Below are positions 1,292 to 55,288 of a stretch of 64,000 nucleotides of DNA, piece after piece. Source of the DNA: Waddliaceae bacterium (lineage in GTDB: Bacteria > Chlamydiota > Chlamydiia > Chlamydiales > JABHNK01). Below the pieces are notes generated by a model. The model searched no databases, was not told the DNA's origin, and saw nothing but the letters and a program-made list of their open reading frames with translations. Position numbers and translations under genes: made by a program. The stretch's first letter is position 1; each line of letters begins with the position of its first letter. The stretch covers positions 318 through 64,317 of the forward strand of contig JABHNK010000006.1 of the NCBI GenBank assembly GCA_018694295.1. The letters run 5' to 3'.

Positions 1292-2329
1292 ATGAAGAAG
1301 ATTATAACTATGATGTCAGCGGTGTTATGCCTTATAGCATATGGCGCCTATGCTGAAGATGGGAAAATAGCATGGATTGCCGACTATGACGAAGCTCTCG
1401 ACATAGCACGTAACGACGATAAGCCTCTCTTTATCTTCTTCAACGGCGCCGACTGGAGCGAGTGGTGCGAGAAGCTCGAAGAAGAAGTCTTTAAAACCAC
1501 GGAATTTGTCGAAGACACTAGCGACGCCTTCATCTTCGCTAAGATAGACTTCCCCAAAGATAAAAGCATCGCCCGCGAAGACCTTGCTAATAACAAAGCT
1601 GTAAGGGAAAAATTCAACGTCTCATCATTCCCTACCGTCGTCGTCGTCGATAGCGAAGAACGTAAAGTCGTTGTCATGGGATACCGCCCCGGTGGCGGCA
1701 AGGAATATGCTGATGCTCTATTAAGAAACTGGGAAGAATACTCTACGCTGGCCAATGCCGTCAAAGATATGAAAAACACCCGACTAACGACGAAGCAACT
1801 AGAAGACCTTTTCAAAGAAGCTAAAGCTTTCGGCGCCGAAGAATATGCCGATATGTTCATCGCCGAAGGCATAAGACGTATCGACAACGCTTTCTTCTTG
1901 CTAGAGAAATACCGTAGCAACGTACAGAATGGCAATATCGACGATATCGATGTAAGAGCATTACGGAATATCCTCGCCGAAGACAACCCCAACAACGAAA
2001 ACAACGTACAATATAACCTCGCCGTAATAGACTTCCAGGCGCGCATTGCCGGCGCCACAGCAGGGGATATCGATAAAGCACTAAAACCATTGATAACATA
2101 CCTCGATACCTTCGGCGCAGAAGATCGAGAGACAGCATGGCGCGTGACAATGACGATAGCACAGGTCTTCCACGACAATAATATGATAGAACAAGCTCTG
2201 AAATATGCACAGACATGCTACGAAACAGCACCCGAAGATATGAAAGACCGTATCGCCGAAGCGATAGATTTCATGGAAAAAAGCTCACCAAACACCAAAA
2301 TCAAAGAACTTACACTGCTTGAGCAGTGA
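1292..2329 (+). CDS. Secreted thioredoxin-fold protein (Thioredoxin_7/DUF255-like) with helical C-terminal domain
   Basis: I prefer the in-frame ATG at 1292, which has GGAGAG just upstream. It yields the signal-peptide-like MKKIITMMSAVLCLIAYGAYA. DDKPLFIFFNGADWSEWCEKLEEEVF resembles the thioredoxin-fold active-site region but has WSEWC instead of CxxC. Confidence 0.6.
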   Translation: MKKIITMMSAVLCLIAYGAYAEDGKIAWIADYDEALDIARNDDKPLFIFFNGADWSEWCEKLEEEVFKTTEFVEDTSDAFIFAKIDFPKDKSIAREDLANNKAVREKFNVSSFPTVVVVDSEERKVVVMGYRPGGGKEYADALLRNWEEYSTLANAVKDMKNTRLTTKQLEDLFKEAKAFGAEEYADMFIAEGIRRIDNAFFLLEKYRSNVQNGNIDDIDVRALRNILAEDNPNNENNVQYNLAVIDFQARIAGATAGDIDKALKPLITYLDTFGAEDRETAWRVTMTIAQVFHDNNMIEQALKYAQTCYETAPEDMKDRIAEAIDFMEKSSPNTKIKELTLLEQ

Positions 2330-2563
2330 GTTCGGAGTTCGGAGTAGGATTTTTCTACCACGGAGCCACGGAGGACACAGAGAAAAAGAACTGGCTGGGG
2401 GATTCCCCCAGGCCCCCATTTCTGAACGGTTGAATGGCGATCTTTTTAAAATTTTCGGGGTTCTAGGGGTGACACCCCTAGCTAGTGCTGTTCTTCACTT
2501 TTTTTTAAACTTTTGTTCTCCGTGTCCTCCGTGGCTCCGTGGTAAAAAATCGGAGTTTGGAGC
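2330..2563 (+). repeat. Family-A composite palindromic element, full copy A1
   Basis: Starts 1 nt after the stop at 2329. Layout: GTTCGGA GTTCGGA tail, AGGATTTTT, CCACGGAG-CCACGGAG-GACACAGAG arm, hairpins CTGGGGGATTCCCCCAG and CTAGGGGTGACACCCCTAG, then a mirror arm TTCTCCGTGTCCTCCGTGGCTCCGTGGTAAAAAATC. The arms are near-perfect reverse complements over about 38 nt. Confidence 0.85.
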
Positions 2564-3064: not shown

Positions 3065-3242
3065 TGTGGTATTCCTTTAAAATGATATATATAAAAACAA
3101 TACGAAACTATAACCGATATCATGAATATTTCTCAAGAAAATAAAATATCTTCTCTCTACAGAGAAAAACGTTGAAAATAAATTGCTCTACATGTTATCA
3201 CTATACATTAACTTTTTACATTTCTGAGGACGGAAAAGAACA

Positions 3243-3407
3243 ATGAAAGTACGAGCATCAGTAAAAGCCGACCCATCTAAAGGGGATAAGGTTGTACGGC
3301 GCAAAGGCCGTGTATATATCATCAACAAAAAAGACCCACGTCGCAAGCAGCGACAAAAGGGTCCTGCACGAGTAACGCGAGTAACGCGACCAACGCGAGC
3401 AAATTAA
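3243..3407 (+). CDS. rpmJ: 50S ribosomal protein L36, Cys-less chlamydial type, with a repeat-derived C-terminal tail
   Basis: Not in the ORF track. Translates [54 protein letters not shown]. The first ~42 aa match the non-zinc L36 form I recall from Chlamydia. rpsN follows 17 nt downstream. Confidence 0.9.
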
Positions 3408-3424
3408 GGGAAAATAAAGACACT

Positions 3425-3730
3425 ATGGCTAAGAAATCTTCGATAGCAAAACAAAAAAGACGTGAGCGCCTTGTGCAGCTCAAATGGGAGAAGCGACAGG
3501 GGCTTAAAGCTCTTATCAAAAATCTAGATACCACTCCTGAAGAACGCTATGATGCGCAGGTGACTCTTAATAAGATGTCGCCTAATGGATCGACAGTTCG
3601 CCTACGCAACCGCTGCCAGATGACTGGACGCGCCCGCGGTAACCTCAACAAGTTCAAGATCTCGCGAATATGTTTCCGCGAACTTGCTTCACGAGGGATG
3701 ATACCAGGAGTGCAGAAGGCAAGCTGGTAA
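3425..3730 (+). CDS. rpsN: 30S ribosomal protein S14
   Basis: 101 aa. [14 protein letters not shown]...[43 protein letters not shown] is the canonical long-form S14. Confidence 0.95.
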
Positions 3731-3759
3731 CCACAACGAAATACTTCTTTATAGAAGGC

Positions 3760-3802
3760 GCCAAGACAGCAGAATTCCACCTGTTTGTCTTGGCTTTTTT
3801 TT
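3760..3802 (+). terminator. Rho-independent terminator after rpsN
   Basis: GCCAAGAC(AG)...(CTGTTT)GTCTTGGC stem followed by T8 (3795-3802), 30 nt after the rpsN stop. Confidence 0.7.
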
Positions 3803-3838
3803 ACATATGATTTATAAAAGATCGAAAAGCTCGAGGAA

Positions 3839-4135
3839 ATGATTATGGATGCTCTTGGAGAAGTGGGATATATTGAAGAGCTTGCGTCACGTAATGCAGC
3901 AGCAATAGAAGCAGACGCTCAAGAACTTCAGGTTGTTGAAAAACCTGATCCCGCTGTTCCTGCTTTTGTTCCAGATGTTCCTGAAACAGATAGATCGATT
4001 CAAAAGACTGTATTAAGAATATTTGAAAGATACATAAGAAGACCATTGGTATCTTGTTTGGGATCGTTAAGGCAACGTGGCGTAAGAAAACATGCTACTC
4101 AAGAACTTCAGGTTGTTGAAAAAGGACTGAAATAG
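3839..4135 (+). CDS. Hypothetical protein containing a 26-bp perfect direct repeat
   Basis: 98-aa ORF with no recognisable domain. QELQVVEK is encoded twice by identical DNA (3918-3943 and 4098-4123). Confidence 0.35.
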   Translation: MIMDALGEVGYIEELASRNAAAIEADAQELQVVEKPDPAVPAFVPDVPETDRSIQKTVLRIFERYIRRPLVSCLGSLRQRGVRKHATQELQVVEKGLK

Positions 4136-4193
4136 ACTAGACTTTGAGAAAAGCGACTATTAAGAGAATAACAAACTACAAGGAGATATTACG

Positions 4194-4778
4194 ATGTCGA
4201 AATTATTTTTCCGCCACGGCGCCATGGGTAGCAGCAAGACCGCTAACGCTCTGATGGTACAATACAACTACAGTGAGAAGGGACAGAATGCTGTGCTGTT
4301 CAAGCCCGCCACAGACACACGCGATGGTGTCGCTGCCGTGAAGTCGCGGATGGGACTCGAAGCCAATGCTTTCGTAATACAAAACAACGATAATGTAAAA
4401 GATATGATATCCTCCATGCTCAAAGAAGGTGAAACAATAGACTGTATCATCGTCGATGAGTCGCAGTTCCTCACCGCCGACCATATCCTACAGCTTAGCG
4501 AGGTCGTCGATGATATCGATATCCCCGTGATATGTTACGGACTCAGGACAGACTTCATGGGAAACCTCTTCGAAGGCAGCAAAAAGCTTATGGAGTTTGC
4601 TAACGTCATCGAAGAAGTCAAGACGATATGCTGGTGTGGCAGTAAAGCTATAATGAATGCACGAGTCGTCGATGGCAACGTAGTAAAACACGGAGAACAG
4701 ATACAGATTGGTGGTAACGAATCGTATGTAAGCCTATGCCGCAAACACTGGAAGTCAGGAAAGCTAGGCGAGCATTGA
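4194..4778 (+). CDS. tdk: Thymidine kinase
   Basis: 194 aa with a P-loop (GAMGSSKTANAL), VDESQFL, and the C-terminal zinc-ribbon pattern ICWCG...LCRKHW typical of type II thymidine kinases. Confidence 0.9.
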   Translation: MSKLFFRHGAMGSSKTANALMVQYNYSEKGQNAVLFKPATDTRDGVAAVKSRMGLEANAFVIQNNDNVKDMISSMLKEGETIDCIIVDESQFLTADHILQLSEVVDDIDIPVICYGLRTDFMGNLFEGSKKLMEFANVIEEVKTICWCGSKAIMNARVVDGNVVKHGEQIQIGGNESYVSLCRKHWKSGKLGEH

Positions 4779-4797
4779 GATGCGGCTACGCCGAATA

Positions 4798-5094
4798 GTT
4801 CGGATTTCGGAATAGGATTTTTGCCACAGAGGACACAGAGGGATCACAGAGGATACACAGAGAAGGCGGCGGAAGGGCTAGGGGTTTCACCCCTAGAACC
4901 CCGAGGATTTTAAAAAGTTCACCGTTTACCGTTCAAAAACGGGGGTCTGGGGGAGGTTCCCCCAGCCATATTCTTTTTTTCTCTGTGAGGCCTCTGTGGT
5001 TCCTCTGTGTCCTCTGTGGCAAAATTGGGGTTTTAGCTTCGGAATTCTGTTCCGAACTCATTGAGCATTGAGCGCTCTCTGTGGTAAAAAAAAC
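4798..5094 (-). repeat. Family-A element, full copy A2 (core inverted relative to A1)
   Basis: GTTCGGATTTCGGAATAGGATTTTTGCCACAGAG GACACAGAG...CACAGAG arm, then CTAGGGGTTTCACCCCTAG, CCGTTCAAAAACGG, CTGGGGGAGGTTCCCCCAG, four CTCTGTG units, then CCGAAC/CATTGAG heptamers and a terminal CTCTCTGTGGTAAAAAAAAC. Confidence 0.85.
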
Positions 5095-5111
5095 AATGGT
5101 GAGTAATACCT

Positions 5112-6188
5112 GTGGATAAAAAAAAGAAAAAAACAGTAGTAGTTGGGATGTCGGGGGGAGTCGACTCCTCGGTGGCGGCGCTTATCCTCAAAGAGCAAGG
5201 ATATAACGTCATCGGCATGTTTATGAAAAACTGGGACGATACCGCCGACGAAGAATGTCCCGCCGCTGAAGACCACGACGATGTCGTAGCAATATGCGAG
5301 CAGATAGATATACCTTTCTATACCGTAAACTTCACGAAAGAATATTGGGATAACGTCTTCGAATCGTTCCTAGAAGACTGTAAGAAGGGGATAACACCAA
5401 ACCCCGATGTCCTATGCAACAGAGAGATAAAATTTAAGGTCTTCCTAGAAAAAGCAATGGAACTCGGCGCCGATTACCTCGCTACAGGACACTACTGCCG
5501 TAACATCATCGTCGATGGCAAAAATATGCTCGCCAGAGGTGTCGATAACAACAAAGACCAAAGCTATTTCCTATACACAATAAAAAGCGCGATATTAGAA
5601 AAGGTGCTGTTCCCCATAGGAGAGCTAAAAAAAGATGAAGTGCGACGTATCGCCGAAAAACATGACCTGGCGACAGCAAAAAAGAAAGATAGCATGGGGA
5701 TATGCTTCATAGGGAAACGCAACTTCAAAGAATTCGTAGGGAAATATCTAGGATTCTCGAAAGGGGAATTCCAAAAACTCGACGGCACAATCGTAGGAAA
5801 TCACGACGGTATAGCATATTACACAATAGGACAACGTAAAGGCCTCGGCATCGGTGGACCAGGAGAACCTTGGTTCGTAGTAGAAAAAGATCCAGAGAAG
5901 AATGTCGTATACGTCGAACAAGGAGAAGATCACCCTGCATTATATAGCAGCAAACTTACTGCTAAAGAAATATCGTGGGTAGGGGATAAACCAAAAACTA
6001 TTCCATATAAATGCACCGCTAAAATCCGATACCGACAAGCCGATGCACCATGCACCATCACAATATTATCAGACCATGAGGTAGAGGTGGAATTCGACGC
6101 CACACAAAAAGCCGTAACGCCAGGACAGTCAGTCGTTTTCTACGACGGCGAGCTTTGCCTCGGCGGAGCGGTAATCATTGGACATTGA
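5112..6188 (+). CDS. mnmA: tRNA-specific 2-thiouridylase
   Basis: 358 aa. The PP-loop [15 protein letters not shown] and conserved blocks [18 protein letters not shown] and GICFIG are typical of MnmA. GTG start. Confidence 0.95.
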
Positions 6189-6228
6189 ACAGTTATCATT
6201 GATCATTGATAAGTGAGTTTGAAAAAAT

Positions 6229-6277
6229 GTTCAATGTTCAATGTTCAATGTTCAATGTTCAATGCTCATTGTTCAAT
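6229..6277. repeat. Heptanucleotide tandem array (GTTCAAT)5-GCTCATT-GTTCAAT
   Basis: Read directly. It is preceded by CAGTTAT CATTGAT CATTGAT units starting right after the mnmA stop (6188). Confidence 0.9.
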
Positions 6278-6280
6278 GAT

Positions 6281-13803: not shown

Positions 13804-13831
13804 AACAAAGCCCTCGAAAATAATTGCATAA

Positions 13832-13989
13832 CTGATGTTAAGCGCTAATCTTGCTTTAGTGGTGTAGCGAAAGGGTCAAGATGTAAGTGCTTCCGACGAG
13901 CCAAGCTCTGAAGAGCTGGGCGAGAAGGAATACGCAACAGATTGCTCCTTGTAGCACGCCAATAAAGTGAGAGAAGCTCATAACGTCAG
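13832..13989 (+). repeat. Family-B 158-nt structured repeat, copy B1
   Basis: CTGATGTTAAGCGCTAATCTTGCTTTAGTGGTGTAGCGAAAGG...CCAAGCTCTGAAGAGCTGGG...CCTTGTAGCACGCCAATAAAGT...CATAACGTCAG. Lies 28 nt from the start codon of the minus-strand Inc-like gene, antisense to it. Confidence 0.85.
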
Positions 13990-14143
13990 TGTATAATCAA
14001 CTCCTAACGTTTTATCAAGGATATCATTTTTAACGCAAGAAAACTTTTTATAAAAAGAACCTCAGAAACACCCTAGAAACATATAATAAAAATTTTAAAA
14101 CCTCGAGCACAACGCTTTCGGGAAGTTCTCTGAAAACAGATAA

Positions 14144-15265: not shown

Positions 15266-17215
15266 ATGAAAAAACGTATCATTGGCGATTACAACATAAT
15301 CAAACAGATAGGACAGGGGGCTCTAGGGACGGTATGCCTTGCAGAACACCGCTTTATGAAGAAACAGTATGCGCTTAAAGTTCTACCAGAAGAACTCGCC
15401 GCCGATAGAGCCTTTATAAAACGTTTTGAGAAAGAAATAAAAACACTCTCGACACTAGACCATCCTCATATCGTAAAAGTCCATAATGTATCATCAGCGA
15501 AAGGGACATACTTCCTTGTCACCGACTGTGTCGTCGATGATATGGGCGAGACGACAAACCTCGCACAGTATATCACCACACACGAAGGGCCTATAGCAGA
15601 AGATGAGCTCGTCAGGATGCTTAAACAGGTCGTCGGTGCTCTCGATCATATACACACAAGGACGCAAGGCGAAGGCGCTATGGCACACCGCGGACTTAAG
15701 CTTAACAACGTCCTTGTTGGCAAAGGAAAGAAGGGCGTCGATCTTTTCCTCTCAGACTGCGGACTTTCTAACGTAATAGGTTCCGGTGCTGTACTATCTA
15801 GAGCATATAAAGCCCTTGGCGATACCCTCGACGTCACCGTTGTAGAGACGACGAAAGGCGGCGAAGAAAAATACCCATCGAAACCATCAGACCCAGAAAA
15901 TGTACAACGCCTAAATAACTCCTTCCTGCAACACCTTGCATTCCTCGCACCAGAACAAAGAAATACGAACGGTGCCGTCGCAGCTGTCAGCTCCGATATC
16001 TATGCCTTCGGCGTCATGACATACTACCTGATAACAGGGGAATACCCAGAAGGTATCTTCGACATGCCTTCAGCGCTACGCCCAGAATACCGACTTCCAT
16101 GGGATGACTTTATAAAAGCATGCATGCAAAAAGATCCCGCTAGGCGTCCTACGTCACTGCTAGGGGCTTTCGACGACCTCCTAAACCAAAGACATAACAA
16201 TGAAGATGGTTTCGTGACATATACCATGAAGAAACCACAGCCCAAGACAACAGAGAAAATAGAAGAAAAAGAACTCGTTGCCGTTGGCGCAATAAAAGCT
16301 CCAGCAAAGCAAGAGAAAAATAAAGCCTCGGAGCCTAAAGCCCTCCTCGCCGAGATGTCGGATTTAAAACCAGCGATAAAAGAAAAAGCCCTAGAAACAC
16401 CAACATACGAAGAAGATCCAGCAGCAACGATTCGTGTAGACCGTAGCGTTACACACTACGAGCCCGAGCCAGTGAAACATATCGATATAGAACCTATCAT
16501 GACTGATATGGTGGTGATAAAAGGTGGGAAATTCTTCCGCGGAAGTAACGACGGAAATAGAGACGAGATGCCACGACACGAAGTGAATATCGAAAGCATA
16601 GCAGTAGACATCCACCCCGTAACAAACGAACAATTTATCCGCTTCCTGGAAGCTATGGGAGGGGAGAAAGACGTTAATAACAACGACACCATACAACTCC
16701 GCGAGTCTAGGATAAATCGTCGCGCAGGAAGCCTCTCAATAGAATCAGGATACGGAAAACACCCAGCAGCAGGAGTTACATGGTACGGCGCCGTGGCATA
16801 CGCAAAATGGGTGGGAAAACGACTTCCAACAGAAGCAGAATGGGAAATAGCAGCACGCGGAAGTAACGAAAATAGCCCGTTCCCAGTAGAAGGCGATATG
16901 GAGAAAACAAAAGCTAACTACTTCAGCTCCGATACCATAGCAGTGAAAAGCTATGCGCCAAGCAATAACGGACTATACGATATCGTCGGAAATGTATACG
17001 AATGGTGCCAAGATTGGTACGGATATAACTACTACGAAGCTTCGGAACAAGAACCTAATGATCCTCAAGGTCCTATACAAGGCGTATACCGCGTACTTCG
17101 TGGGGGTTGCTGGAAAAGTCTTAAAGAAGACCTTAGATGCTCACACAGACATCGCAATAACCCTGGAGCAGCAAACAGCACCTGCGGGTTCCGATGCGTT
17201 TCTAATGTAGAGTAG
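15266..17215 (+). CDS. pkn1: Ser/Thr protein kinase with C-terminal FGE/sulfatase-modifying-factor domain (Pkn1-like)
   Basis: 649 aa. Kinase subdomains are present: GQGALGTV, ALKVL, HRGLKLNNVL, APE. The C-terminal ~240 aa carry the FGE-sulfatase pattern (GVTWYGAVAYAKWVGKRLPTEAEWE...GNVYEWCQDWY...RVLRGGCW). This is the same architecture I recall for chlamydial Pkn1. Confidence 0.85.
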   Translation: MKKRIIGDYNIIKQIGQGALGTVCLAEHRFMKKQYALKVLPEELAADRAFIKRFEKEIKTLSTLDHPHIVKVHNVSSAKGTYFLVTDCVVDDMGETTNLAQYITTHEGPIAEDELVRMLKQVVGALDHIHTRTQGEGAMAHRGLKLNNVLVGKGKKGVDLFLSDCGLSNVIGSGAVLSRAYKALGDTLDVTVVETTKGGEEKYPSKPSDPENVQRLNNSFLQHLAFLAPEQRNTNGAVAAVSSDIYAFGVMTYYLITGEYPEGIFDMPSALRPEYRLPWDDFIKACMQKDPARRPTSLLGAFDDLLNQRHNNEDGFVTYTMKKPQPKTTEKIEEKELVAVGAIKAPAKQEKNKASEPKALLAEMSDLKPAIKEKALETPTYEEDPAATIRVDRSVTHYEPEPVKHIDIEPIMTDMVVIKGGKFFRGSNDGNRDEMPRHEVNIESIAVDIHPVTNEQFIRFLEAMGGEKDVNNNDTIQLRESRINRRAGSLSIESGYGKHPAAGVTWYGAVAYAKWVGKRLPTEAEWEIAARGSNENSPFPVEGDMEKTKANYFSSDTIAVKSYAPSNNGLYDIVGNVYEWCQDWYGYNYYEASEQEPNDPQGPIQGVYRVLRGGCWKSLKEDLRCSHRHRNNPGAANSTCGFRCVSNVE

Positions 17216-17235: not shown

Positions 17236-17430
17236 AGGATTTTTACCACAGAGCCACGGAGAACACAGAGAGAAAAAAGAATATGGCTGGGGGATTTTCC
17301 CCCAGACCCCCGTTTTTGAACGGTAAACTGTTAATGGTGAATTGCAAACTTTTTAAAATCCTCGGGGTCCTAGGGGTGAAACCCCTAGCCCGCCCACCTT
17401 CCTCTCTGTGTTCTCTGTGGTAAAAATTTC
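17236..17430 (+). repeat. Family-A element, full copy A3
   Basis: Begins about 20 nt after the pkn1 stop. AGGATTTTTACCACAGAGCCACGGAGAACACAGAGAG, CTGGGGGATTTTCCCCCAG, CCGTTTTTGAACGG, CTAGGGGTGAAACCCCTAG, CTCTCTGTGTTCTCTGTGGTAAAAATTTC. Confidence 0.85.
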
Positions 17431-22045: not shown

Positions 22046-22123
22046 AGCATAATACCTTAATGTTTTACGGTTTTAGAGATTCAATTATATGCTTTTTCTC
22101 ACTATCCCGCAAGAAAATTCCTA

Positions 22124-22137
22124 CTCCGAACTCCGAA
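22124..22137. repeat. Solo heptamer tail (CTCCGAA)2 abutting the hflX stop codon
   Basis: GAAAATTCCTACTCCGAACTCCGAA-CTA. This is the same outer-end sequence as family-A copies A4 and A5. The CTA is the hflX stop (22138-22140). Confidence 0.7.
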
Positions 22138-23445
22138 CTATTTAACAATATACTTTGAGATCTTCCCTGCGAGGTTTGTGGGGATATCAGCTTGTATAAC
22201 GACGTCATTTTCGTCGTATTCTTGCGACAGTATTTTTCCTCCGCTGATGATCTCGGTGACGACATGATAATCGCTTTGTGGGATACGCACGTTGACGATT
22301 TTCCTTCGCGATCGGAGCTCTTGTGATATTGCTTCCATGAGGTCGTCGAAACCTTCGTGTTTCAGCGCGGAGACCACCACGGTGTTTTTGTACCGCAGAC
22401 GCATATAGTTAGCTCTTTCGTTGTCGTGGCACAGGTCGATTTTGTTGAGGACGGTTATCATAGGCTTCTCGTCGGCGCCGAGTTCTTTAAGGACGGCGCG
22501 AGTTGCCACGATATGTTCGTCGGCAAGGTGGTCACTGACATCTACGAGGTTTATTAGTACATCGGCGTCGGTGGCTTCCTCTAGGGTGCTTCTGAATGCT
22601 TCGACGAGGGTGTGTGGCAGTTTCCTGATAAACCCTACGGTGTCGATGAGAAGGATGTCTTGATGGTTCGGTAGCGTATAGCGTCGTGTTGTGGTGTCTA
22701 AGGTGGCGAAAAGCTTGTCTTCGACGAAGACGTCAGCATCGGTGAGGGCATTGAGTAGCGTAGACTTTCCGGCGTTGGTATATCCTATTATGGCGAAAGT
22801 CGGTATCTCGGAGCGTTCGCGCGAAACATGTTGCGTCTCACGGTGCTGCCGCACCTCTTTAAGGTCATTTTTTAGCTTGCTGATCTTTTTCTTAAGAAGG
22901 CTTCTGTCGATCTCAATCTGCTTCTCGCCGTCGCCTTTAAGGAAAAGTCCACCGCCACGCTGACGATCGAGGTGCTCCCATAGGTTCTTAAGGCGCGGAT
23001 ACTGATAACGTGTCTTTGCAAGCTCTATCTGCAGCTGCGCCTCTTTAGTGTGGGCGCGTTTGGCGAAAACTTCGAGGATAAGCTCCGTCCTGTCGATGAC
23101 AGGGCAGCCGAACTTCTCTTCGAGGTTGCGTTGCTGGCCAGGAAGGACTTCGTCGTCGAGGATGATAAGGTCGGCTTCGAGATCATGGGCGCTGGCGACA
23201 AGCTCTTCGACCTTGCCTTTGGTGATATACGTCGAAGAATCATACTTGCGAAGATAACAATGGCTCTTATCGACAACACCGACACCAAGCGTGTCAGCAA
23301 GAAGCTCAAGCTCGTCGAGATGATCGCCACAAACATTCTTCTCCGAAGACTTCATATATATTCCTATCAAAAACGCGCGCTGTGCTGGAGCACTTTCGTC
23401 GGCAAACATAGCACGACGCTCTTCGGGATTCTGTTCTATCTTCAT
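22138..23445 (-). CDS. hflX: GTPase HflX
   Basis: 435 aa with the HflX N-terminal domain, then G1 GYTNAGKSTL, G3 DTVGF and G4 NKID. Confidence 0.95.
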   Translation of the reverse strand: MKIEQNPEERRAMFADESAPAQRAFLIGIYMKSSEKNVCGDHLDELELLADTLGVGVVDKSHCYLRKYDSSTYITKGKVEELVASAHDLEADLIILDDEVLPGQQRNLEEKFGCPVIDRTELILEVFAKRAHTKEAQLQIELAKTRYQYPRLKNLWEHLDRQRGGGLFLKGDGEKQIEIDRSLLKKKISKLKNDLKEVRQHRETQHVSRERSEIPTFAIIGYTNAGKSTLLNALTDADVFVEDKLFATLDTTTRRYTLPNHQDILLIDTVGFIRKLPHTLVEAFRSTLEEATDADVLINLVDVSDHLADEHIVATRAVLKELGADEKPMITVLNKIDLCHDNERANYMRLRYKNTVVVSALKHEGFDDLMEAISQELRSRRKIVNVRIPQSDYHVVTEIISGGKILSQEYDENDVVIQADIPTNLAGKISKYIVK

Positions 23446-27462: not shown

Positions 27463-27590
27463 ATCGTTCCTTTTTATTTTATCTGTTAAGGCTTAAGATG
27501 TTAGCATTTTCTTGGATTTGTGTCAAGGAGGTTGTATTGAAATTTGAGTTATCGAAAGTTCTTATCTCATTATTTTCATTTGGTTTTTAA

Positions 27591-27693
27591 CTGATGTTAC
27601 TCGCTAATCTTGTTTTAGTGGCGTAGCGAAAGGAATACGCAGCAGATCGCCCTTGCAGCACGCCAATAAAATGAGAGCGGCGCGTAAGGTCAG
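27591..27693 (+). repeat. Family-B repeat, 103-nt deletion variant (copy B2)
   Basis: It has the same 5' and 3' blocks as the 158-nt copies but lacks exactly the 55-nt internal hairpin. The deletion junction falls in an AAGGA that flanks the hairpin on both sides in full copies. It lies 234 nt upstream of ligA, in sense. Confidence 0.85.
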
Positions 27694-27713
27694 TTTTAAA
27701 TGAAAATATCGGA

Positions 27714-40022: not shown

Positions 40023-40238
40023 AACAGGTTACACCTACATAAGAAAGGGCTTTAACAAAGAGGTTTTGTTTTTACGTAATGTTCTCTTGTACATCATTGA
40101 CATGTGAAGTAGCAAGGAAAATCTTCTCAATATTGGACACGATATCCGTAAATATATGGCGCTCATGTAGTACAAAAAATCAAAAAAAAAGATATACAAA
40201 ATTCTGGGAACTTTGTAGCCTAAAAAATATTTTATTCA

Positions 40239-40396
40239 CTGATGTTACACGCTAATCTTGCTTTAGTGGTGTAGCGAAAGGGACAAGATTCAAGTACTTC
40301 CGACGAACCAAGCTCTGAAGAGCTAGGTGAGGAGGAATGCGCAGTAGATTGTTCCTTGCAGCACGCCAATAAAGTTAAAGTTGCGCGTAAGGTCAG
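40239..40396 (+). repeat. Family-B 158-nt structured repeat, copy B3
   Basis: Ends 48 nt before the ATG of the 2157-aa ankyrin gene, in sense orientation. Same length and block structure as B1 and B4. Confidence 0.85.
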
Positions 40397-40444
40397 TGAT
40401 ACAACAAAAGTTTTATAAAACCTAAAACCTTAGGAAAAATAATT

Positions 40445-43400
40445 ATGAGCTCATCAAGTGTATTATCAAGTCAAACATCAACACCAATAGGAGCACCACT
40501 AAGACTCATGCCAGCATATCAACAGGATGGGAGTCACAGATATTATCAGAATGGGAGTCAAAGTCCCGTGGATGACGCTCCAGATCGAAGATCATTTACT
40601 CCATCTGAAAAAGATAGAATTGATATTGTAAGCAGGTCTATGAGTTTTGTTCACGGATTGAGCGATGAAGACGCGCGTATTGTTACTAAGGTTAAAGAAG
40701 CATTGAGTACAAAGGGAAATATTAGTCATAATCCTTCTATTTCAACATTGAAGGAGATTTACAGTAAGAAAGAAGGAGATGAAGCATTAACTAAAAGATA
40801 TGATAGAATATGGAAAGAGATATTCGTAAACAGAGAAGAATTTGGCGTCGTAGCTAAAAACCGCTTGATCAGAATTTTTCGAAAAAAAGAGTCTCTTGAC
40901 TTGCAAGGAAGCCCCATGGAAGGAGGGCGTGCACGAGATGTAAAAATACCAGAGATAGAAGGTGTGGAGGGGCTAGGGGATTCAGAAATCATAGGAGCCT
41001 TTGTCGATGGTTTTAACGCTTCAGAAAGTAGTAAAGGAAAGCGCAAGCAATATATCAATCGTGCTTATAGAGTCATTGCAGACATAGTAGAAACGACGTA
41101 TTACTATAAAGAAGACACCGGGAAAATGTTTTTTGACACACGTACCGTGGCATTAGCACGCGATGAGCTTCTTACGATGTTTGATTGTCAAAATTTGAAT
41201 GTCAAAGAAAGAGCCATTCGAAATATTATACTGCTTAATGAGCTTATGGTTGTTCCAGAAAGCGAATTAGAGAAAAAGACAGACAGTGGTTTAGAAGTGA
41301 TGGTAGAAGAACTTTTCAAAAGAAGTAAGGGCTTGTATGAAAATGTTGAGATAAAAAGAAAGACGGAAGTCGGTAAGGACACAATACTTAGAATTACTTC
41401 GCCACGTCTTGCATGGCCTCTCGTTAGAGCCTTGACAACGACGATAAAGACACAGGTGTTACTTGAAAAGGCAGGAAATAGGTTTCGTATTGAAGAAGGC
41501 GTTCGGCAGGAAAGGATTAAGGTTTTAGATAGAATCCTCGAGAGCAATAAAGTGATTAAACATGAAGAAATAACGGAAGATGGAGAAGTAAAATTTTGGG
41601 CAGAATTTGGTAAAGAACTTCTCGAATTAATGGGGCCGAAAGTGTCTGGAAAAGAAAGATTAAAAGATCTTGCTGTGGAAGCTGTTAAAGATGGTGTTGA
41701 GGTGGCGTCTTCGGTGGCAAGTGCAGCAGGAAACGTCGCTGCTCACGATCCTCTGGCGGTGGCAGAAGATGCTTTCAAAGTCGTTCAAACGGTAGGAAAG
41801 GCTGCCCTCAAGACCGCAGGGGCAGTAAAAGAGCATTCAGATAAAACAAAAGAATGGGCAAATAATCTTATTAAACTTGAAAAGGTGTGCTTCGAATCTC
41901 TTAATAATAGTGAGGAGTTTCGCCTCAGCGCTGTAAAACTCGTGCAGCAATATATGCACGGCGAAGAAACTAACACAAGCCTTTCGTATGGCGTTTTGAC
42001 GATATTGGAGCGCGTAGTCTTAGACTCTACGGACGATAACATAAGGGAAGAGGCCATGAAGCTTATCTTCCAATATAGCAATATTGGCGGCGATGAAATC
42101 AGAATCCGCGTAGTGATTGCTGCACTAACCATCTTATTCAACGTCAAAGATAAGCCTGATGATGGTGGTTCCAGTGATAGAATACGGAACACAGCATATG
42201 CTATCGTGTGTTATTGTCAGCATAGCGAAGACTTTCCTGACCAGGCCAAAGAAAGGATAAGGTCGGCGCTTGATACAGAAAATTTCGTTGATAGTGTTAA
42301 AGCAAAAGTCGTTGCTAGTGTTAAAGCAAGAATTCGTTCTGCGATGAGAGAAGCACTATGTATGAACGTCATACGTTTCGTTATGCGATGGGTCGCCGAT
42401 ATAAAAAGCGAAGGGGAATATGGAGGGTCCTCGTTGGCGACATTACTATCATATTCGCGAAAAACTGTTGTTGTGCCGCCATTGCTCGCATGGCTCAAAG
42501 AACTTTTCCCTAAACATTATAGAAAACCCGATGTTTATGGAAACACACCATATCACGTTGTCGCTATGCAAGACAATCCTAAGATGATACGATGTATCGC
42601 CGAGGAACTCAAAGCGATCAACATCAACCAAAAAGATTATGCCCAAGGTAAAGACAAGGGCTACGCAGCACTTCATTATGCCGTAGAAAAAGGGTTCTAT
42701 AAAACGGTAGAAGAGCTCATCAATATAGGAGAAACAATAAACCCGAAGATAAAGATTGATATTTGCGATAAAGAAGGTAATACACCTTTCCATATAGCAG
42801 TAAGAGAGGCAATAAAAACAGACAAACTTCTTGCTAAAGCAAGTGATGAAGAAAGAGGCGCCAAAGAAAAAACCGCGACAGCAGAACAAGAACTTAAAAC
42901 CTTGTTGGCAACGAGAAAAAATAAAAGCGATAATATAGAAGGAATAAGTAAAAAAAGAGAGAAAATCGAAGAGTTAAGGGAGGAAGAAGAGAAAAAAGAG
43001 GATAGGGTCAAAGAGCTGAAAGAAAAGCAGGCGCAACACAAGAAAATTGAAGCATTACTAGTTCAAAAATGTCCTAAGAGCATCAATTGTATTAATAAAG
43101 CGGGTGATACGGCACTTAATATAGCAATACGTGAAGACGCTGCTGAAAAAGCACTAGAAATTAAGGCGTTAGGTGGTGAGGTCGCTGAAAAAGAACGATC
43201 TAAAACAAGCGCTATAAGCGTGGCGGCACGATGTGATTCGACTAAGACATTAGTAGCACTTATATCGAAAAAACTTGAAGGCGTGAAAGGAGATGGTAGA
43301 GGCGCAGTATTATCAAAATTTGAAGCTATTGATATTGTCGAAGTATTCAATAGGGCAATACGCGCCGAAGAAACTGTTGATGATGCACTAATAATTTTTC

Positions 43401-46918: not shown

Positions 46919-47040
46919 CCAGATTACGCCGTGCCCGAGCCTGAGCTTATAAAAGTATAGCGTAGGCGTAGTTTTTTCTAGGAAAAATTAAGAGCGATGC
47001 GTTACTTTTCTTCCCATATACTTATATGAGGAGATGCTCT

Positions 47041-52494: not shown

Positions 52495-52665
52495 AACGAC
52501 GCTTTTTAAATTGGGGTCAGACGTGAATTTTGTGAACCTAAAATCAGGATAGCGTTTGTGCAAAATGGTCAAGCTAGAGCATTGAGCATTTCTATTGGGT
52601 AATAAAAAAGCCTATGCAGGTATAATGGCAACAAATTTTGGAATAATAACAAAGTGAGGAATAAC

Positions 52666-53079
52666 ATGAGCGCAATGCAACAATATCGTATAAACACCAC
52701 GCCCTTTTCTGTCGAATATTCTACTAATGACGATGGTACTGTGTCCTGTAGTCTTTTATATCAGAAGACTTTCAAGAGTAAACGCCCACGACTTGATCCT
52801 CCTGAGAAGCCAACTTACATTCCAAGTGCAACATATGATGTTTCTATAGAGGTTTTTGAGGCCATCGAAAGAGTTTCAGGAACTTCTGCTCTTTACCCTT
52901 CAGAGCGCTTTAAACAGTGTGATCATGATATAAGAATTATAATTTTCGAGACTATTCATAAAGTGGATGAAAAAGTAGAAGACGTTGAAAAACGAATAAC
53001 GGAAGTCCTTACAAAATGTTTAGAAGGTGCAATAGGACAATACGACTCTCCTCACCCGCACCTTTTAATTAGCGTATAG
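52666..53079 (+). CDS. Hypothetical protein
   Basis: 137 aa from the ATG at 52666, with GAGGA upstream. No domain recognised. Confidence 0.45.
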   Translation: MSAMQQYRINTTPFSVEYSTNDDGTVSCSLLYQKTFKSKRPRLDPPEKPTYIPSATYDVSIEVFEAIERVSGTSALYPSERFKQCDHDIRIIIFETIHKVDEKVEDVEKRITEVLTKCLEGAIGQYDSPHPHLLISV

Positions 53080-53087
53080 GTTTTTAT

Positions 53088-53122
53088 CTCCGAACTCCGA
53101 ACCCCGAACCCCGAACTCTGAA
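53088..53122. repeat. Heptanucleotide tandem array (CTCCGAA)2-(CCCCGAA)2-CTCTGAA
   Basis: Starts 9 nt after the stop at 53079. It is followed by the hairpin TGCGGC-AAA-GCCGCA and TTT. Confidence 0.9.
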
Positions 53123-53242
53123 CTATGCGGCAAAGCCGCATTTCAATGATTCTAGTATATTCCTTGTACTTTAAACCTTAAGGAGTTACAATCTAAAGTC
53201 AAAAGTCGCAATCATTGACTTAACATACAAAAGGACAAAAAA

Positions 53243-54079
53243 ATGAAAGTAACAGGTACAGTAAGAGACTCTTCTCGACAAGGAACCTTCCCCGAAACAA
53301 GGGAGATTTCCGCTTCTGAACGTCAACAATATAGAGACTCAGTGGTAGTGCTGAATAGAAAGATTATGTCAGCAGAATACATACAAGAAATTATAAGAGA
53401 AAAAGGACTGTTTTGTGGATCAAAACAAAAGCCATCTAGACTCTCTAGTTTATTTTTGACAAGGAAACGTTATCGCTCCTTTAAAAAACAAGTAAGGTTA
53501 CAGTATTTATCCCAAGAGATAGAAGCGCCAGGAGTGCTAGGGGTTTATACCGTCCCTGATTTTGTAGATGTTGCCAATAAAATATTATCAAAACAACCTG
53601 ATTATTATATACCAAGCACTTTTGATCTATTAATGTCCAAGATTTTAAGTGTTAGTATGGCTCTTGATTTAGATAGTCTTTCCGGGATTGAAGAAGACTT
53701 TGCAGATGTAGCGATAAAGCTGGCAAAGCATGGGCAAGCACGCACCGCAGCTGGTAATTTATCTATGTTTTATGCGCTTATTGACATGTCTGTAGCAAAA
53801 AAGAGTTCTGGGAGTTTTCGATTTTCATTTGATGATAGAAACCGGGCGGCCCGAGCTGCGATTTCTTTGGTTGATTCGAAGTTATCATATCCAGAAGGTG
53901 ATAGGCTCTTTGTTATTCTTTTTGGTACGGTAAAAAAGATAGCAGATGAAGACTCTTTTGATGATGAAACGCGTAGATTGGCACGTGAAAAACTGGACGA
54001 CAAAGAACTATGGAAAAAATGCGAAGAAGATTATCTCAAGTTTTTGCTCGATCTGCGCAGTGTGGAGCTCTCTGTGTAA
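53243..54079 (+). CDS. Hypothetical protein whose last codons lie in a family-A arm
   Basis: 278 aa with AAAGGA upstream of the ATG. The C-terminal ...VELSV and the stop are encoded by CTCTCTGTGTAA of repeat A6. Confidence 0.5.
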   Translation: MKVTGTVRDSSRQGTFPETREISASERQQYRDSVVVLNRKIMSAEYIQEIIREKGLFCGSKQKPSRLSSLFLTRKRYRSFKKQVRLQYLSQEIEAPGVLGVYTVPDFVDVANKILSKQPDYYIPSTFDLLMSKILSVSMALDLDSLSGIEEDFADVAIKLAKHGQARTAAGNLSMFYALIDMSVAKKSSGSFRFSFDDRNRAARAAISLVDSKLSYPEGDRLFVILFGTVKKIADEDSFDDETRRLAREKLDDKELWKKCEEDYLKFLLDLRSVELSV

Positions 54080-54118
54080 CTCCGTGATTCCTCCGCGCCC
54101 TCTGTGGTAAAATCCTGG
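54068..54118 (+). repeat. Family-A solo arm A6
   Basis: CTCTCTGTGTAACTCCGTGATTCCTCCGCGCCCTCTGTGGTAAAATCCTGG. Lies between convergent stops at 54079 and 54135. Confidence 0.7.
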
Positions 54119-54870: not shown

Positions 54871-55260
54871 GATTTTTTCACCACAGAGTTTCCCATGGAG
54901 TCCTGCCGCCCCTGCAATAAAAAGTAACAAGCCCCAATTTTTTCACCACAGAGCCACAGAGTACACAGAGAGCGCCCACCGCGTAGAGCGCGCGCAGCGG
55001 ACGCACAGCTGTCGCCATTGTCATTGATTGTACTTCCTTTCTTTGTTTTTCCTATAGCAAACGTAAAGATACAATCTTACTTTTACGACAACGGCGAGAG
55101 GGGGCACTGCCGTGTCCGGGTTTATTCAATGTTCAATGTTCAATTATCATTGTTCAATGAAAAAAGGGGGTCTGGGGGAATCCCCCAGCCATGTTTTTTC
55201 CTCTCTGTGTTCTCTGTGGCTCTGTGGTGAAAAATCCTATTCCTAGTCCGAAGTCCAAAC
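54871..55260 (-). repeat. Family-A element, rearranged 390-nt copy A7 inside the transporter operon
   Basis: Two left-arm starts (GATTTTTTCACCACAGAG at 54871; AATTTTTTCACCACAGAGCCACAGAGTACACAGAGAG at 54936-54972), about 150 nt of unrelated GC-rich filler, a GTTCAAT-type array (55124-55158), CTGGGGGAATCCCCCAG (55172-55188), a right arm CTCTCTGTGTTCTCTGTGGCTCTGTGGTGAAAAATCC, then a GTCCGAA-like tail. Confidence 0.8.
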
Positions 55261-55288
55261 TTTTTAGGGAGCTTTACCTTTGTAAGTT

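Follow-up and report, generated by a model that had tools for sequence, protein, structure and literature searches.

What are the palindromic repeats found at gene ends in a marine Chlamydiota MAG labelled Waddliaceae, and how did they come to lie there? The window, a 64,000-nt stretch of this MAG, was analysed as a whole. It contains seven loci and some fragments with arms, two G/C hairpin modules (HP1 and HP2) and heptamer tails. An earlier note had described a seven-locus repeat family and interpreted it as a palindromic element that is repeated, non-autonomous and located at the 3' ends of genes. Both statements stand: the motifs were present where placed, and shuffles or expected counts were about zero. 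The list of copies was correct for its loci and incomplete; additional fragments lie at 22112-22143, 35016-35075 and 53088-53124, together with a solo unit at 5074-5094. The copy at 4798-5094 had been described as one with an inverted core. It is a real copy, but actually the whole symmetric-armed element lies in the opposite orientation. The features are:

2328..2563, no strand assigned: full element 1, between the convergent trx-like (+, stop 2329) and rnpA (-, stop 2568) genes; heptamer tail 2328-2345 (GAGTTCG x2.6), linker AGGATTTTT 2346-2354, left arm 2358-2382, HP1 2395-2411, HP2 2463-2481, right arm 2518-2542 (reverse), degenerate tail to 2563; fold -116.1 kcal/mol, z -8.98.
4794..5094, no strand assigned: full element 2, in opposite orientation, filling the gap from tdk (stop 4778) to mnmA (start 5112); tail 4797-4813, linker 4814-4822, four-unit arm 4825-4862, HP2 4878-4896, HP1 4947-4965, four-unit reverse arm 4981-5018, CATTGAG-heptamer tail to 5073, extra solo terminal unit CTCTCTGTGGTAAAAAAAA 5074-5094; fold -147.6 kcal/mol, z -11.6.
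17236..17430, no strand assigned: full element 3, between a kinase-FGE gene (stop 17215) and queC (start 17475); linker 17236-17244, arm 17246-17270, HP1 17287-17305, HP2 17370-17388, two-unit reverse arm 17404-17419; fold -82.1 kcal/mol, z -6.5.
22112..22143, - strand: tail-only fragment (AAAATTCCT linker and ACTCCGA x2.4), overlapping the stop of the hflX-like gene 22138-23445 (-).
32177..32345, - strand: half element (arm and HP1 module) between ORF 29934-32174 and ORF 32357-33772; CAGTTAT heptamers 32177-32209, HP1 32229-32246, reverse arm 32259-32283, CATTGAG-heptamer tail 32305-32326.
35016..35075, no strand assigned: arm-less heptamer arrays CTCCGAA x2.3 and ACTGGTC x3.6, with units of the tail type.
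35655..35759, + strand: half element (HP2 module and arm), its tail overlapping the dcd stop (-, 35754-35756); HP2 35668-35686, reverse arm 35702-35726, linker 35730-35738, CTCYGAA tail to 35759.
53088..53124, - strand: heptamer array CTCCGAA x5.3, the unit of element tails, 9 nt after the stop of ORF 52654-53079.
54068..54118, - strand: solo four-unit reverse arm (arm 54070-54106), giving ORF 53243-54079 its last codons and TAA; a convergent ABC ATPase gene ends at 54135.
54871..55265, no strand assigned: long copy, located 5' of the ABC ATPase gene (start 54824, - strand); solo unit 54875-54890 and left arm 54946-54970, then an unrelated stretch of about 150 nt in the place of the HP2 module, TTCAATG heptamers 55125-55159, HP1 55172-55188, reverse arm 55203-55227, linker 55230-55238, tail to 55265.

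The arms of the window have the form TT(C/A)A-CCACNGAG-N-CACNGAG-NA-CACNGAG and occur in 11 clusters. The three-unit arm CCACNGAGNCACNGAGNACACNGAG has seven exact matches in the window and none in 100 shuffles; all seven are matches to the cross-phylum arm 25-mer. A looser two-unit arm gave 11 matches against 0.08 expected. CTGGGGG-loop-CCCCCAG is present five times and CTAGGGGTGAAACCCCTAG at four sites, each with an expectation of 0. The AGGATTTTT linkers occur on the + strand (2346, 4814, 17236) and on the - strand (22114, 35730, 55230). Arms form inverted pairs at 2351-2387/2513-2549 (92%), 4819-4864/4979-5024 (89%) and 54939-54972/55201-55234 (97%). RNA folding of the full copies yielded long hairpins (-116, -148 and -82 kcal/mol; z -9.0, -11.6 and -6.5). 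A/T runs lie on both sides of HP1 and HP2. The half element at 32177..32345 can be aligned to the left halves of the full copies and that at 35655..35759 to the right halves. Near-identical non-coding core modules were found at five loci (HP1 with GTTTTTGAACGG) and at four loci (TTTTTAAAATCCTCGGGGTTCTAGGGGTGAAACCCCTAGCCCG). This conservation of internal modules from copy to copy indicates that the element proliferated within the genome. Beyond the listed tails, the window has many other period-7 arrays.

The family had not been recognised in the earlier note, and a match to a catalogued family was sought in Rfam and the searchable literature without result. The window and 18 arm-bearing loci had no Rfam match at gathering thresholds; an E-value scan of two copies against Rfam returned, below threshold, only generic long-hairpin miRNA models. 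A description of the arm sequence strings was not found in the searchable literature. Ribosomal RNA was absent from the window (Rfam) and from all loci (conserved probes). DnaA boxes, parS, integron attC, sigma-54/ECF promoters, CsrA/Hfq sites and Type III restriction sites did not fit the sequence.

As read from the sequence, all seven loci are located at stop codons or at most about 21 nt from them. This agrees with the proximity or overlap noted before for stops at 2329, 4778, 17215, 32174, 35754 and 54079. The TGA at 2327-2329 adjoins the tail of element 1, and the TGA at 4776-4778 lies 20 nt ahead of the tail of element 2. The TAG at 17213-17215 is 21 nt ahead of the linker of element 3; the TAA at 32172-32174 precedes the heptamers of the half element 32177..32345 by 3 nt. 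The dcd stop (35754-35756, - strand) is within the tail of the half element 35655..35759. ORF 53243-54079 terminates with CTCTGTG-TAA within an arm, as expected from the claim that a repeat supplies the last codons and the stop of this gene. The gap between tdk and mnmA measures 333 nt in the window, where it is filled by the element, and 2 nt in the closest sampled relative (L326), which represents an empty site. Two related chlamydial contigs have no arms. For a MAG of an intracellular lineage, this indicates a recent colonisation by an element that is not present in the sampled regions of two relatives. The window encodes no transposase, as had been stated.

The arms are not restricted to this lineage. 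A search with the arm 25-mer obtained at least 120 stretches in GTDB genomes of many phyla and at least 120 in IMG/VR. Among the matches listed, the carriers are many bacterial phyla, some archaeal bins and phage-like contigs. The logo built on 140 arms of other taxa agrees with the window in its consensus and in its outer edge, which is sharp and lies at TTMA; the interiors are not conserved. The triplets of the logo are strictly conserved, its spacer positions are free and its periodicity is 8-9 nt. The core modules with the two G/C hairpins were matched neither in IMG/VR nor in other arm-bearing loci (2.2 Mb). The term 'lineage-specific', used before for the family, does not apply to the arms, which are common to many phyla and phage-like contigs; by sequence comparison, the 100-130-nt core with two G/C hairpins is the only lineage-specific part of the element.

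Within an element, 87 of 125 free positions of one arm are complementary to their counterparts in the other, compared with 52.5 +/- 6.5 for shuffled partners. The mismatches between arms showed no sense-strand bias (G:U versus A:C, 73 versus 62) and therefore lend no specific support to pairing at the RNA level. Of 283 arms, 133 stand alone and 24 point outward, so a hairpin is not obligatory. Units are found in direct, inverted and everted arrangements, and some loci have arm clusters (L285). Phage contigs carry several co-oriented solo arms directly 5' of start codons. Nostoc copies are nested in another inverted repeat, AGGACTTACGCA...TGCGTAAGTCCT. An autonomous transposon between distant arm pairs of phage contigs was considered and dismissed: the genes in between are ordinary tail genes.

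According to gene calls by crude ORF/GC3 heuristics, the TTCA side lies 1-25 nt past a same-strand stop codon in a large share of arms. A role of the arm as promoter or 5' element of the next gene was not supported; in a naive ORF test, the arms did not exceed the control. Under improved gene calls, the stronger signal was the closeness to the preceding stop. A fixed stop codon inside the element was looked for, and no offset was sharp except for the TAA/TGA in the TTAA/TGAA head. Solo arms are under-represented between divergent genes (6/89).

Judged from sequence, the arms are the inverted flanks of cassettes of about 450 bp, which encode a predicted GxxExxY / PDDEXK_3 protein of about 125 amino acids. 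Two loci (L046, L092) have the order arm-ORF-arm, with ORFs matching PF13366 (E 1e-40) and TIGR04256. A search for the GxxExxY protein gave at least 8000 candidates. In 80 metagenome loci selected by protein similarity alone, a forward arm was present upstream in 42, a reverse arm downstream in 53 and both in 35, against a background of 12/836 windows. PDDEXK_3 was the only gene consistently enclosed by arms in the loci examined. Three cassettes (L279, L293, L317) share 82-85% identity over about 435 nt; their flanks are unrelated, and the similarity ends sharply about 10 nt beyond the arms. A target-site duplication or direct repeat was absent at these ends, and a conserved target sequence was not seen. 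The TTCA/TGAA pair at the cassette ends belongs to the inverted repeat.

The upstream gene is co-oriented with the cassette in 20 of 21 callable cases. By the same crude heuristics, the distance from stop codon to arm is mostly 2-31 nt; the next start usually follows the cassette after 6-44 nt. The arms also occur in the cultured Bacteroides finegoldii, in the order radA-cassette-FAD protein. Sphingomonas has an arm dialect, CGCGARG, between fabD and fabG. Cassettes at orthologous sites (L255/L266, L259/L260/L276, L281/L309) have flanks as similar as the cassette, which implies a long vertical residence. Truncated GxxExxY ORFs are present at L278, L297 and L311, and a fragment at L084. The purine-rich left arm has a GGAG/GAGG Shine-Dalgarno-like sequence adjoining the ATG. 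A survey of the PD-(D/E)XK superfamily lists the function of PDDEXK_3 as 'Unknown' and reports multiple transfers among bacteria, archaea and viruses (PMC3424549). The AlphaFold model of the GxxExxY protein was poor (pLDDT 60) with meaningless Foldseek matches in PDB, and PDB had no sequence match. PADLOC matched neither the GxxExxY nor the IVP protein to a defence system, and no GxxExxY gene was found in the cultured-phage collection.

The window loci are thus probably complete or fragmentary copies of a palindromic insertion element that is non-autonomous and carries no gene; it would have arms of the GxxExxY-cassette family and have multiplied in the genome. Its terminal inverted repeats would be about 30 bp long, with three or four tandem 8-9-nt C(A/G)C-N-GAG units and a TT(C/A)A head. 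The same arm family would frame GxxExxY cassettes (PD-(D/E)XK family PDDEXK_3, TIGR04256) elsewhere. These arm-framed mini-cassettes are apparently very widespread, undescribed and wedged into operons just after stop codons. They seem to have no space for a promoter of their own; in combination with the co-orientation a few nt after the host stop, this suggests a probable expression by read-through. The left arm may supply the Shine-Dalgarno-like sequence for the cassette ORF. A GxxExxY gene is absent from the 64-kb window and from 5 kb beyond, and a six-frame hmmsearch with the GxxExxY profile detected no PDDEXK_3 coding trace in the window. As the ORF between the arms is absent, the window copies are gene-less derivatives. 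In the Waddliaceae MAG, the nuclease gene would have been replaced by the lineage-specific core, two G/C hairpins amid A/T runs. The gene-less form would have multiplied within the genome and landed beside stop codons. Movement may proceed in trans, by the GxxExxY nuclease or another factor that reads the CAC-N-GAG periodicity. In the transcript, paired arms could form a duplex of at least 25 bp, a potential RNase III substrate or 3'-end barrier in analogy to the stems of 23S intervening sequences. The core hairpins may contribute bidirectional termination. An unrelated IVP protein is found in similar cassettes, so both proteins could be cargo and not the engine.

Other origins have to be weighed. 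A terminator or insulator cassette that serves the host, as suggested by the earlier note, would end transcription in both directions by the G/C hairpins, with the arms merely stabilising an outer stem. This origin has a small but real chance. In its favour, every copy is found at the 3' end of a gene and two copies separate convergent genes; both hairpins have A/T runs on either side, and solo arms are rare between divergent genes. A scan for simple intrinsic terminators, defined as a G+C-rich stem-loop with a T-rich tract within 0-2 nt, called HP1 in three copies (2411-2395, 4947-4965, 17305-17287) and did not call HP2. HP1 passes in one direction; in the other, the T run begins about 8 nt past the stem. 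The outer arm stem has T before and A after, the reverse of a terminator. Function alone leaves the cross-phylum invariance of the arms and their flanking of a nuclease gene unexplained. The relative copes with a tdk-mnmA gap of 2 nt, and interiors in other taxa are without a terminator. Several copies have flanking genes that run in one direction, with the next start 15-45 nt away; termination at such a place would cut the operon. Termination is compatible with exaptation after insertion and so competes with the proposed origin, not with an effect. Alternatively, each locus could have lost a GxxExxY or IVP ORF in place, with a gene-less form that never moved. The persistence of cassettes at orthologous sites, the truncated ORFs and the unrelated sequence of about 150 nt in the copy at 54871-55265 agree with decay. 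It is nevertheless unlikely: independent decay would not yield near-identical core modules at five and four loci, which argue for copying of the gene-less form, and no PDDEXK_3 coding remnant was left in the six frames of the window.

Arrays of protein-binding sites, for a ribbon-helix-helix repressor on 7-9-bp units or similar to phage 'stoperators', could spread by selection in place of transposition. The strict triplets with free spacers at 8-9-nt periodicity, the direct, inverted and everted units and the solo arms before start codons on phage contigs would suit such sites. A candidate binding protein linked to the arms was not found. Sharp element ends that travel with unrelated flanks, the empty site in the relative and whole modules copied within the genome indicate an insertion of DNA segments, and render this reading very unlikely. 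The two models overlap, since the insertion element also needs a reader protein. Least credible, with hardly any chance, is a REP/REPIN mobilised by a RAYT (Y1 HUH), or a classical MITE that depends on a DDE transposase gene in another part of the genome. The elements are palindromic, extragenic and multicopy, some loci are clustered in a REP-like manner, and the evidence covers the sampled part of the genome. REPs are defined by a GTAG or CGTC head on a 20-40-nt imperfect palindrome (PMC3733652); neither this head nor such a unit is present. A RAYT gene was found neither in the window nor among the neighbours in 120 loci. All-against-all blastp and phmmer of the neighbouring ORFs at these 120 loci revealed no shared gene; the top cluster was ABC ATPases, and the others were arm translations. 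Arms consistently enclose PDDEXK_3 only and no target-site duplication was seen. The filing of the family as Correia/REP-like in the earlier note is therefore not upheld.

The insertion element may belong to a larger group. Genes for the four-helix-bundle 23S_rRNA_IVP outside of rRNA lie between tandem arrays of 7-8-nt repeats, which are inverted in 11 of 12 loci inspected. This framing matches the published architecture of the Coxiella 23S rRNA intervening sequence (IVS), with a 28-bp terminal stem that is cut by RNase III and tandem GACAGAT heptamers ahead of the S23p ORF (PMC4990558). Tentatively, GxxExxY and, in parallel, IVP/Avd-like cassettes might be members of one so far unrecognised class, minimal mobile elements of some 450 bp that insert immediately after stop codons and ride on the transcription of host operons. 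The chlamydial hairpins might be their MITE-like offspring, the 23S IVS a special case that landed in rRNA, and the intergenic heptamer repeats of cyanobacteria and other groups, for long without an explanation, their arms or footprints. Members of the proposed class would have a single small ORF between inverted tandem 7-9-nt repeat arrays, and their hosts would include bacteria, archaea and phages. Both PDDEXK_3/GxxExxY and 23S_rRNA_IVP count among the very large families without known function, and the DNA architecture offers a testable biology. Inverted tandem-repeat arms, post-stop placement, co-orientation with the upstream gene and gene-less derivatives define this architecture, which suggests selfish mini-cassettes that parasitise operons. 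If true, rRNA intervening sequences, intergenic heptamer repeats and hairpin elements that reshape mRNA ends would have a common origin. Recurrent small spurious ORFs in annotations are explained as arm translations (...HRGTEDTE..., ...LCVLCVSVV...). Genes with repeat-supplied C-termini and stop codons are explained as well.

Among known systems, REPs and REPINs are also short multicopy extragenic palindromes, often directly 3' of genes, which occur singly, in clusters or as inverted pairs. They have been proposed to act in termination and to stabilise mRNA, and are non-autonomous, with a protein from a single-copy gene believed to work in trans (PMC3733652, PMC3116915). In contrast, the window arms begin with CCAC and consist of tandem 8-9-nt repeats that are not self-complementary. 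Their sequence is common to many phyla, whereas REPs are species-specific, and they enclose a PDDEXK_3 gene, whereas REPs flank a Y1 HUH transposase gene. Correia elements and other MITEs are non-coding, 100-400 bp long, multicopy and intergenic; they have terminal inverted repeats and RNA hairpins that can be processed and affect neighbouring genes. MITEs are descended from DDE insertion sequences, and duplications of the target site (TA for Correia) flank them. The arm-framed cassettes had no visible duplication, and the coding counterpart is a 450-bp cassette with a 125-aa nuclease, far below the size of any insertion sequence.

Integron cassettes are likewise promoter-less with one ORF, a palindromic site right after the stop and read-through expression, and they are common in the same environmental phyla as the arms. 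Each has one attC with R''/R' boxes (RYYYAAC ... GTTRRRY) and unconserved stems, in arrays beside an integrase. GxxExxY cassettes differ by two sequence-conserved arms around one gene family and lie one by one, dispersed among housekeeping genes. The heptamer repeats (STRR) and small dispersed repeats of cyanobacteria comprise varied tandem 7-nt repeats in intergenic regions downstream of genes and very small elements that are nested within each other. These repeats are not known to be tied to a gene cassette, whereas heptamer arrays in this analysis flank IVP genes and adjoin CAC-N-GAG arms.

The closest described analogue of the elements is the 23S rRNA IVS of Coxiella burnetii and Leptospira (PMC4990558). 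The differences concern location, cargo and unit. An IVS is defined by its insertion in a helix of 23S (or 16S) rRNA, helix 25 or 45 in the case of 23S, and encloses a gene for a four-helix bundle; the window elements and GxxExxY cassettes lie between protein-coding genes, with no gene in the window copies and a PD-(D/E)XK nuclease in the cassettes, and have CAC-N-GAG as arm unit. Excision by RNase III has been demonstrated for the IVS and would be expected by inference for the window elements. Similar to the cassettes, the IVS is small (about 430 nt), and its terminal inverted repeats form a stem of about 28 bp, comparable to the long stems in the window (PMC4990558). GACAGAT x3 lies between this stem and the start of an ORF of about 120 amino acids, and the repeat region includes an AG-rich Shine-Dalgarno-like sequence (PMC4990558). 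The window elements likewise have period 7-9 arrays. The IVS is promoter-less and transcribed within the host transcript, and its sporadic distribution suggests horizontal transfer (PMC4990558).

The repeat loci of the window are inserted, multiplied, gene-less palindromic elements. Every motif reported in the earlier note was found in its place, and counts against expectation exclude chance: the three-unit arm CCACNGAGNCACNGAGNACACNGAG has 7 matches in the window with 0 expected, and the two-unit version 11 with 0.08 expected. CTGGGGG-loop-CCCCCAG occurs five times and CTAGGGGTGAAACCCCTAG at four sites. A repeat search of the window recovered arm pairs with 89-97% complementarity as well as the shared internal modules. 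Alignment of the copies defined a left module of arm, ~12 nt and GGCTGGGGG-loop-CCCCCAGACCCCCGTTTTTGAACGG, and a right module of TTTTTAAAATCCTCGGGGTTCTAGGGGTGAAACCCCTAGCCCG, ~10 nt and the reverse arm. A copy previously set apart as core-inverted is the same symmetric-armed element in opposite orientation. In RNA folding, whole copies gave long hairpins, with energies from -82 to -148 kcal/mol and z-scores from -6.5 to -11.6. In three copies, and in one direction, the core hairpin HP1 scores as terminator-like in a simple intrinsic-terminator scan. Reading the sequence at the window loci confirmed that each copy adjoins or overlaps a stop codon and that the terminus of ORF 53243-54079 lies within an arm, as had been proposed. 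A minus-strand 46-codon ORF (MATAVRPLRALYAVGALCVLCGSVV...) at 54871-55020 crosses an arm just 5' of the ABC ATPase gene; judged by its sequence, it is probably spurious, an example of small ORFs arising from arm translation.

The neighbours are housekeeping genes (rnpA, tdk, mnmA, 2-oxoglutarate dehydrogenase genes, queC, hflX, ligA, nrdD, dcd and an ABC transporter). Gene annotation searches found no transposase among the window genes, in agreement with the first reading. MnmA of the window is identical to a protein annotated in a 'Waddliaceae bacterium' MAG (Chlamydiota). In the nearest relative sampled, whose MnmA is 71% identical, the tdk-mnmA gap measures 2 nt; in the window it is 333 nt, and the element 4794-5094 occupies it. 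Arms are absent from the contig of this relative and from a 21-kb contig that belongs to a second chlamydial MAG. These differences and the near identity of the internal modules from locus to locus speak for insertion of the element and its spread inside this lineage's genome.

The window holds further repeats. A second family of ~120-190 nt, in direct orientation and 82-90% identical, is present at 13812-14002, 27584-27706, 40219-40409 and 57277-57467. Each copy lies just 5' of a minus-strand gene without Pfam match (starts 13803, 27462, 40022 and 57155), and the family may serve a set of paralogous genes as a common leader or promoter. For the ankyrin-repeat gene at 1-747, the number of 99-nt repeats in the assembly differs among sister contigs of the same population (L121-L123, about 3100-5636), which gives products that measure 212 aa, 562+245 aa and 847 aa. 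Two giant ORFs, 40445-46918 (2157 aa; internal 87-111-nt tandem repeats at 44253-44919) and 47026-52494 (1822 aa), are located in a stretch of low GC content and strong GC skew.

Contrary to one earlier suggestion, the arm is not lineage-specific: the same 25-mer pattern matched at least 120 stretches of GTDB contigs sampled at one genome per species, covering many phyla, and at least 120 in IMG/VR. As both listings are cut short, copy numbers and the span of taxa are minimum values rather than a census. The GTDB matches listed include Planctomycetota, Acidobacteriota, Verrucomicrobiota, Chloroflexota, Cyanobacteria, Gemmatimonadota, Desulfobacterota, Proteobacteria, Bacteroidota, Spirochaetes, Elusimicrobia, Armatimonadota and two archaeal bins; the archaeal label is open to MAG binning error and the viral label to cellular DNA within IMG/VR. 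Some phage-like IMG/VR contigs carry four or more arm copies between structural genes. A logo built from 140 arms showed, outside the positions of the search pattern, TT(C/A)A conserved directly 5' of CCAC and nothing further out. The DNA between paired arms is unrelated from taxon to taxon. Among the matches listed, 126 inward pairs, 133 solo arms and 24 outward pairs were counted, and only 31 of 283 arms lie within called genes. The TTCA side is typically 1-25 nt 3' of a same-strand stop codon (both by heuristic gene calls). The median loop of 108 arm hairpins is ~68 nt. Free arm positions are complementary in 87 of 125 cases within the same element, versus 52.5 +/- 6.5 between elements.

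Some arms have unusual surroundings. In Nostoc (L024, L083, L088, L094), a solo arm is nested in a further inverted repeat, AGGACTTACGCA...TGCGTAAGTCCT or GGGACTTCCAA...TTGGAAGTCCC, which resembles one element sitting inside a second. Locus L040 has direct arm arrays adjoining a gene whose product is presumably similar to phage Mu GemA. At least six arm hairpins surround one GxxExxY gene in L285 (600-2600), and an arm-bearing 87-nt unit stands in four tandem copies ahead of another in L263 (250-1150).

The arms of the window element are homologous to the flanks of GxxExxY cassettes. In L046 and L092, arms directly enclose an ORF of ~130 aa that matches PF13366 (PDDEXK_3) and TIGR04256 (GxxExxY protein). 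An unbiased set of 80 metagenome loci was chosen by GxxExxY protein similarity alone, with a single Acidobacteria-centred profile. A forward arm was present within 150 nt upstream of the gene in 42/80 loci, a reverse arm within 200 nt downstream in 53/80, and both in 35/80; elsewhere in the same set, 12 of 836 windows had an arm. The layout is stereotyped: on the 5' side, a few nt separate the host stop from TT(C/T)A-C[C(A/G)C-N-GAG]x3-4, and the ATG lies 0-20 nt further on. About 125 codons, a stop, 10-30 nt, the reverse arm, GTGAA/GTAAA and the next start follow, with 380-520 nt from arm to arm. Arms occur in CAC and CGC dialects.

These cassettes are discrete units in unrelated settings, placed after stop codons and co-oriented with the upstream gene. 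Three of them are 82-85% identical across ~435 nt with unrelated flanks; similarity begins ~10 nt ahead of the left arm and ends ~8 nt past the right arm, and no target-site duplication was found at these ends. Other cassette pairs are syntenic, which indicates long residence. By heuristic gene calls, 20 of 21 callable upstream genes share the orientation of the cassette, as do 23 of 30 downstream genes, which mostly start 6-44 nt past the arm. Among cultured bacteria, Bacteroides finegoldii has radA-cassette-FAD protein with canonical arms, and Bernardetia the same design. On a plasmid of Sphingomonas parapaucimobilis (L334; NZ_CP155749, 482837-483265), the GxxExxY gene sits in the fatty-acid synthesis operon, with fabD on one side and fabG on the other; its left arm is of the CGCGARG dialect (CGCGAAG/CGCGAGG), and no right arm is recognisable. 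Only 3-4 of the 240 listed loci picked by arm pattern have the gene; gene-less arms are thus far more numerous than cassettes.

Similar vehicles carry a second protein. The sole four-helix-bundle gene in the analysed loci matches PF05635 (23S_rRNA_IVP) and the PHROG 'Avd protein of DGR'. Inverted TCGGCNN heptamer arrays flank this IVP gene and five homologous phage-like loci. On plasmids from cultured bacteria, each of six diverse IVP genes, often within an operon, lies between tandem 7-8-nt arrays (GGACAGA/GGACGGA, GGGAACA, AAGGGAA, AGGAGATA, GGCAGAR and GCTAAAA), five inverted and one direct. On plasmids of Pseudanabaena galeata (L336) and Picosynechococcus PCC 7003 (L340), CRISPR-Cas operons contain IVP/Avd-like genes with tandem-repeat flanks, in the gene orders cas6-IVP-cas4 and cmr2-IVP-cmr3. 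Period-7 arrays (TTCGGAG, CATTGAG, TTCAATG, CAGTTAT and others) also adjoin the window elements and stand alone at several gene ends. The heptamer tails of the window elements, above all TTCGGAG, resemble the arms or leftovers of an IVP-type cassette nested with the CAC-N-GAG element. Just 5' of ligA (start 27928), a heptamer-armed hairpin without CAC-N-GAG units (27714-27772 and 27822-27906) comprises a 28-bp near-perfect palindrome and, after it, inverted arrays of ATAGCGG x4.6 and CTATGCG x4.4. Long arrays of ATCATTG x5.3 and AATGTTC x7.6 (6174-6278) occupy the convergent mnmA/lpdA gap, and the TTCAATG unit of this gap recurs inside an element at 55125-55159.

The cassettes are probably expressed by read-through, since 0-20 nt from arm to ATG is too short for a promoter; the arms could supply Shine-Dalgarno-like GGAG/GAGG. 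Some protein probably reads the CAC-N-GAG motif with its 8-9-nt period. The enclosed PD-(D/E)XK nuclease would be the obvious candidate for mobility or homing and would act on gene-less copies in trans. In RNA, paired arms would form a duplex of at least 25 bp, by analogy with the 23S rRNA intervening sequence (IVS) a substrate of RNase III or a block to exonucleases, and the A-run/hairpin/T-run core of this MAG's elements would add termination. Several points weigh against this scheme: no GxxExxY gene was seen in the 69 kb examined, no target-site duplication was seen, some arms are solo or outward-facing, and a G:U strand bias was not found in the arm hairpins. The ORFs could also be cargo, since two unrelated proteins, GxxExxY and IVP, travel in similar vehicles.

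The window element resembles MITEs and REPINs as a non-autonomous palindrome near gene ends. The suggested Correia/REP-like filing is not supported: the GTAG/CGTC head of REP/RAYT is missing, and a classical MITE was rejected because neither a target duplication nor a DDE parent was seen in the sequences examined. An attC site was rejected on its defining test, and an IVS because the site is not in rRNA. The element matches no Rfam family. The function of PDDEXK_3 is listed as unknown (PMC3424549). The searchable literature, with its incomplete coverage, holds incidental mentions of 'GxxExxY' and no description of the arm family or its GxxExxY/IVP link; NCBI/TIGRFAM curators may have recorded flanking repeats. 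There is a sizeable chance that the element marks a wider, unrecognised class. The promoter-less GxxExxY cassettes are loosely similar to integron cassettes, and these coding relatives of the window element work like an IVS. In Coxiella, the 23S rRNA IVS is described with the same features as the IVP loci seen here: RNase III cuts its 28-bp terminal stem, tandem GACAGAT heptamers stand ahead of the S23p start, and processing removes the AG-rich Shine-Dalgarno region (PMC4990558).
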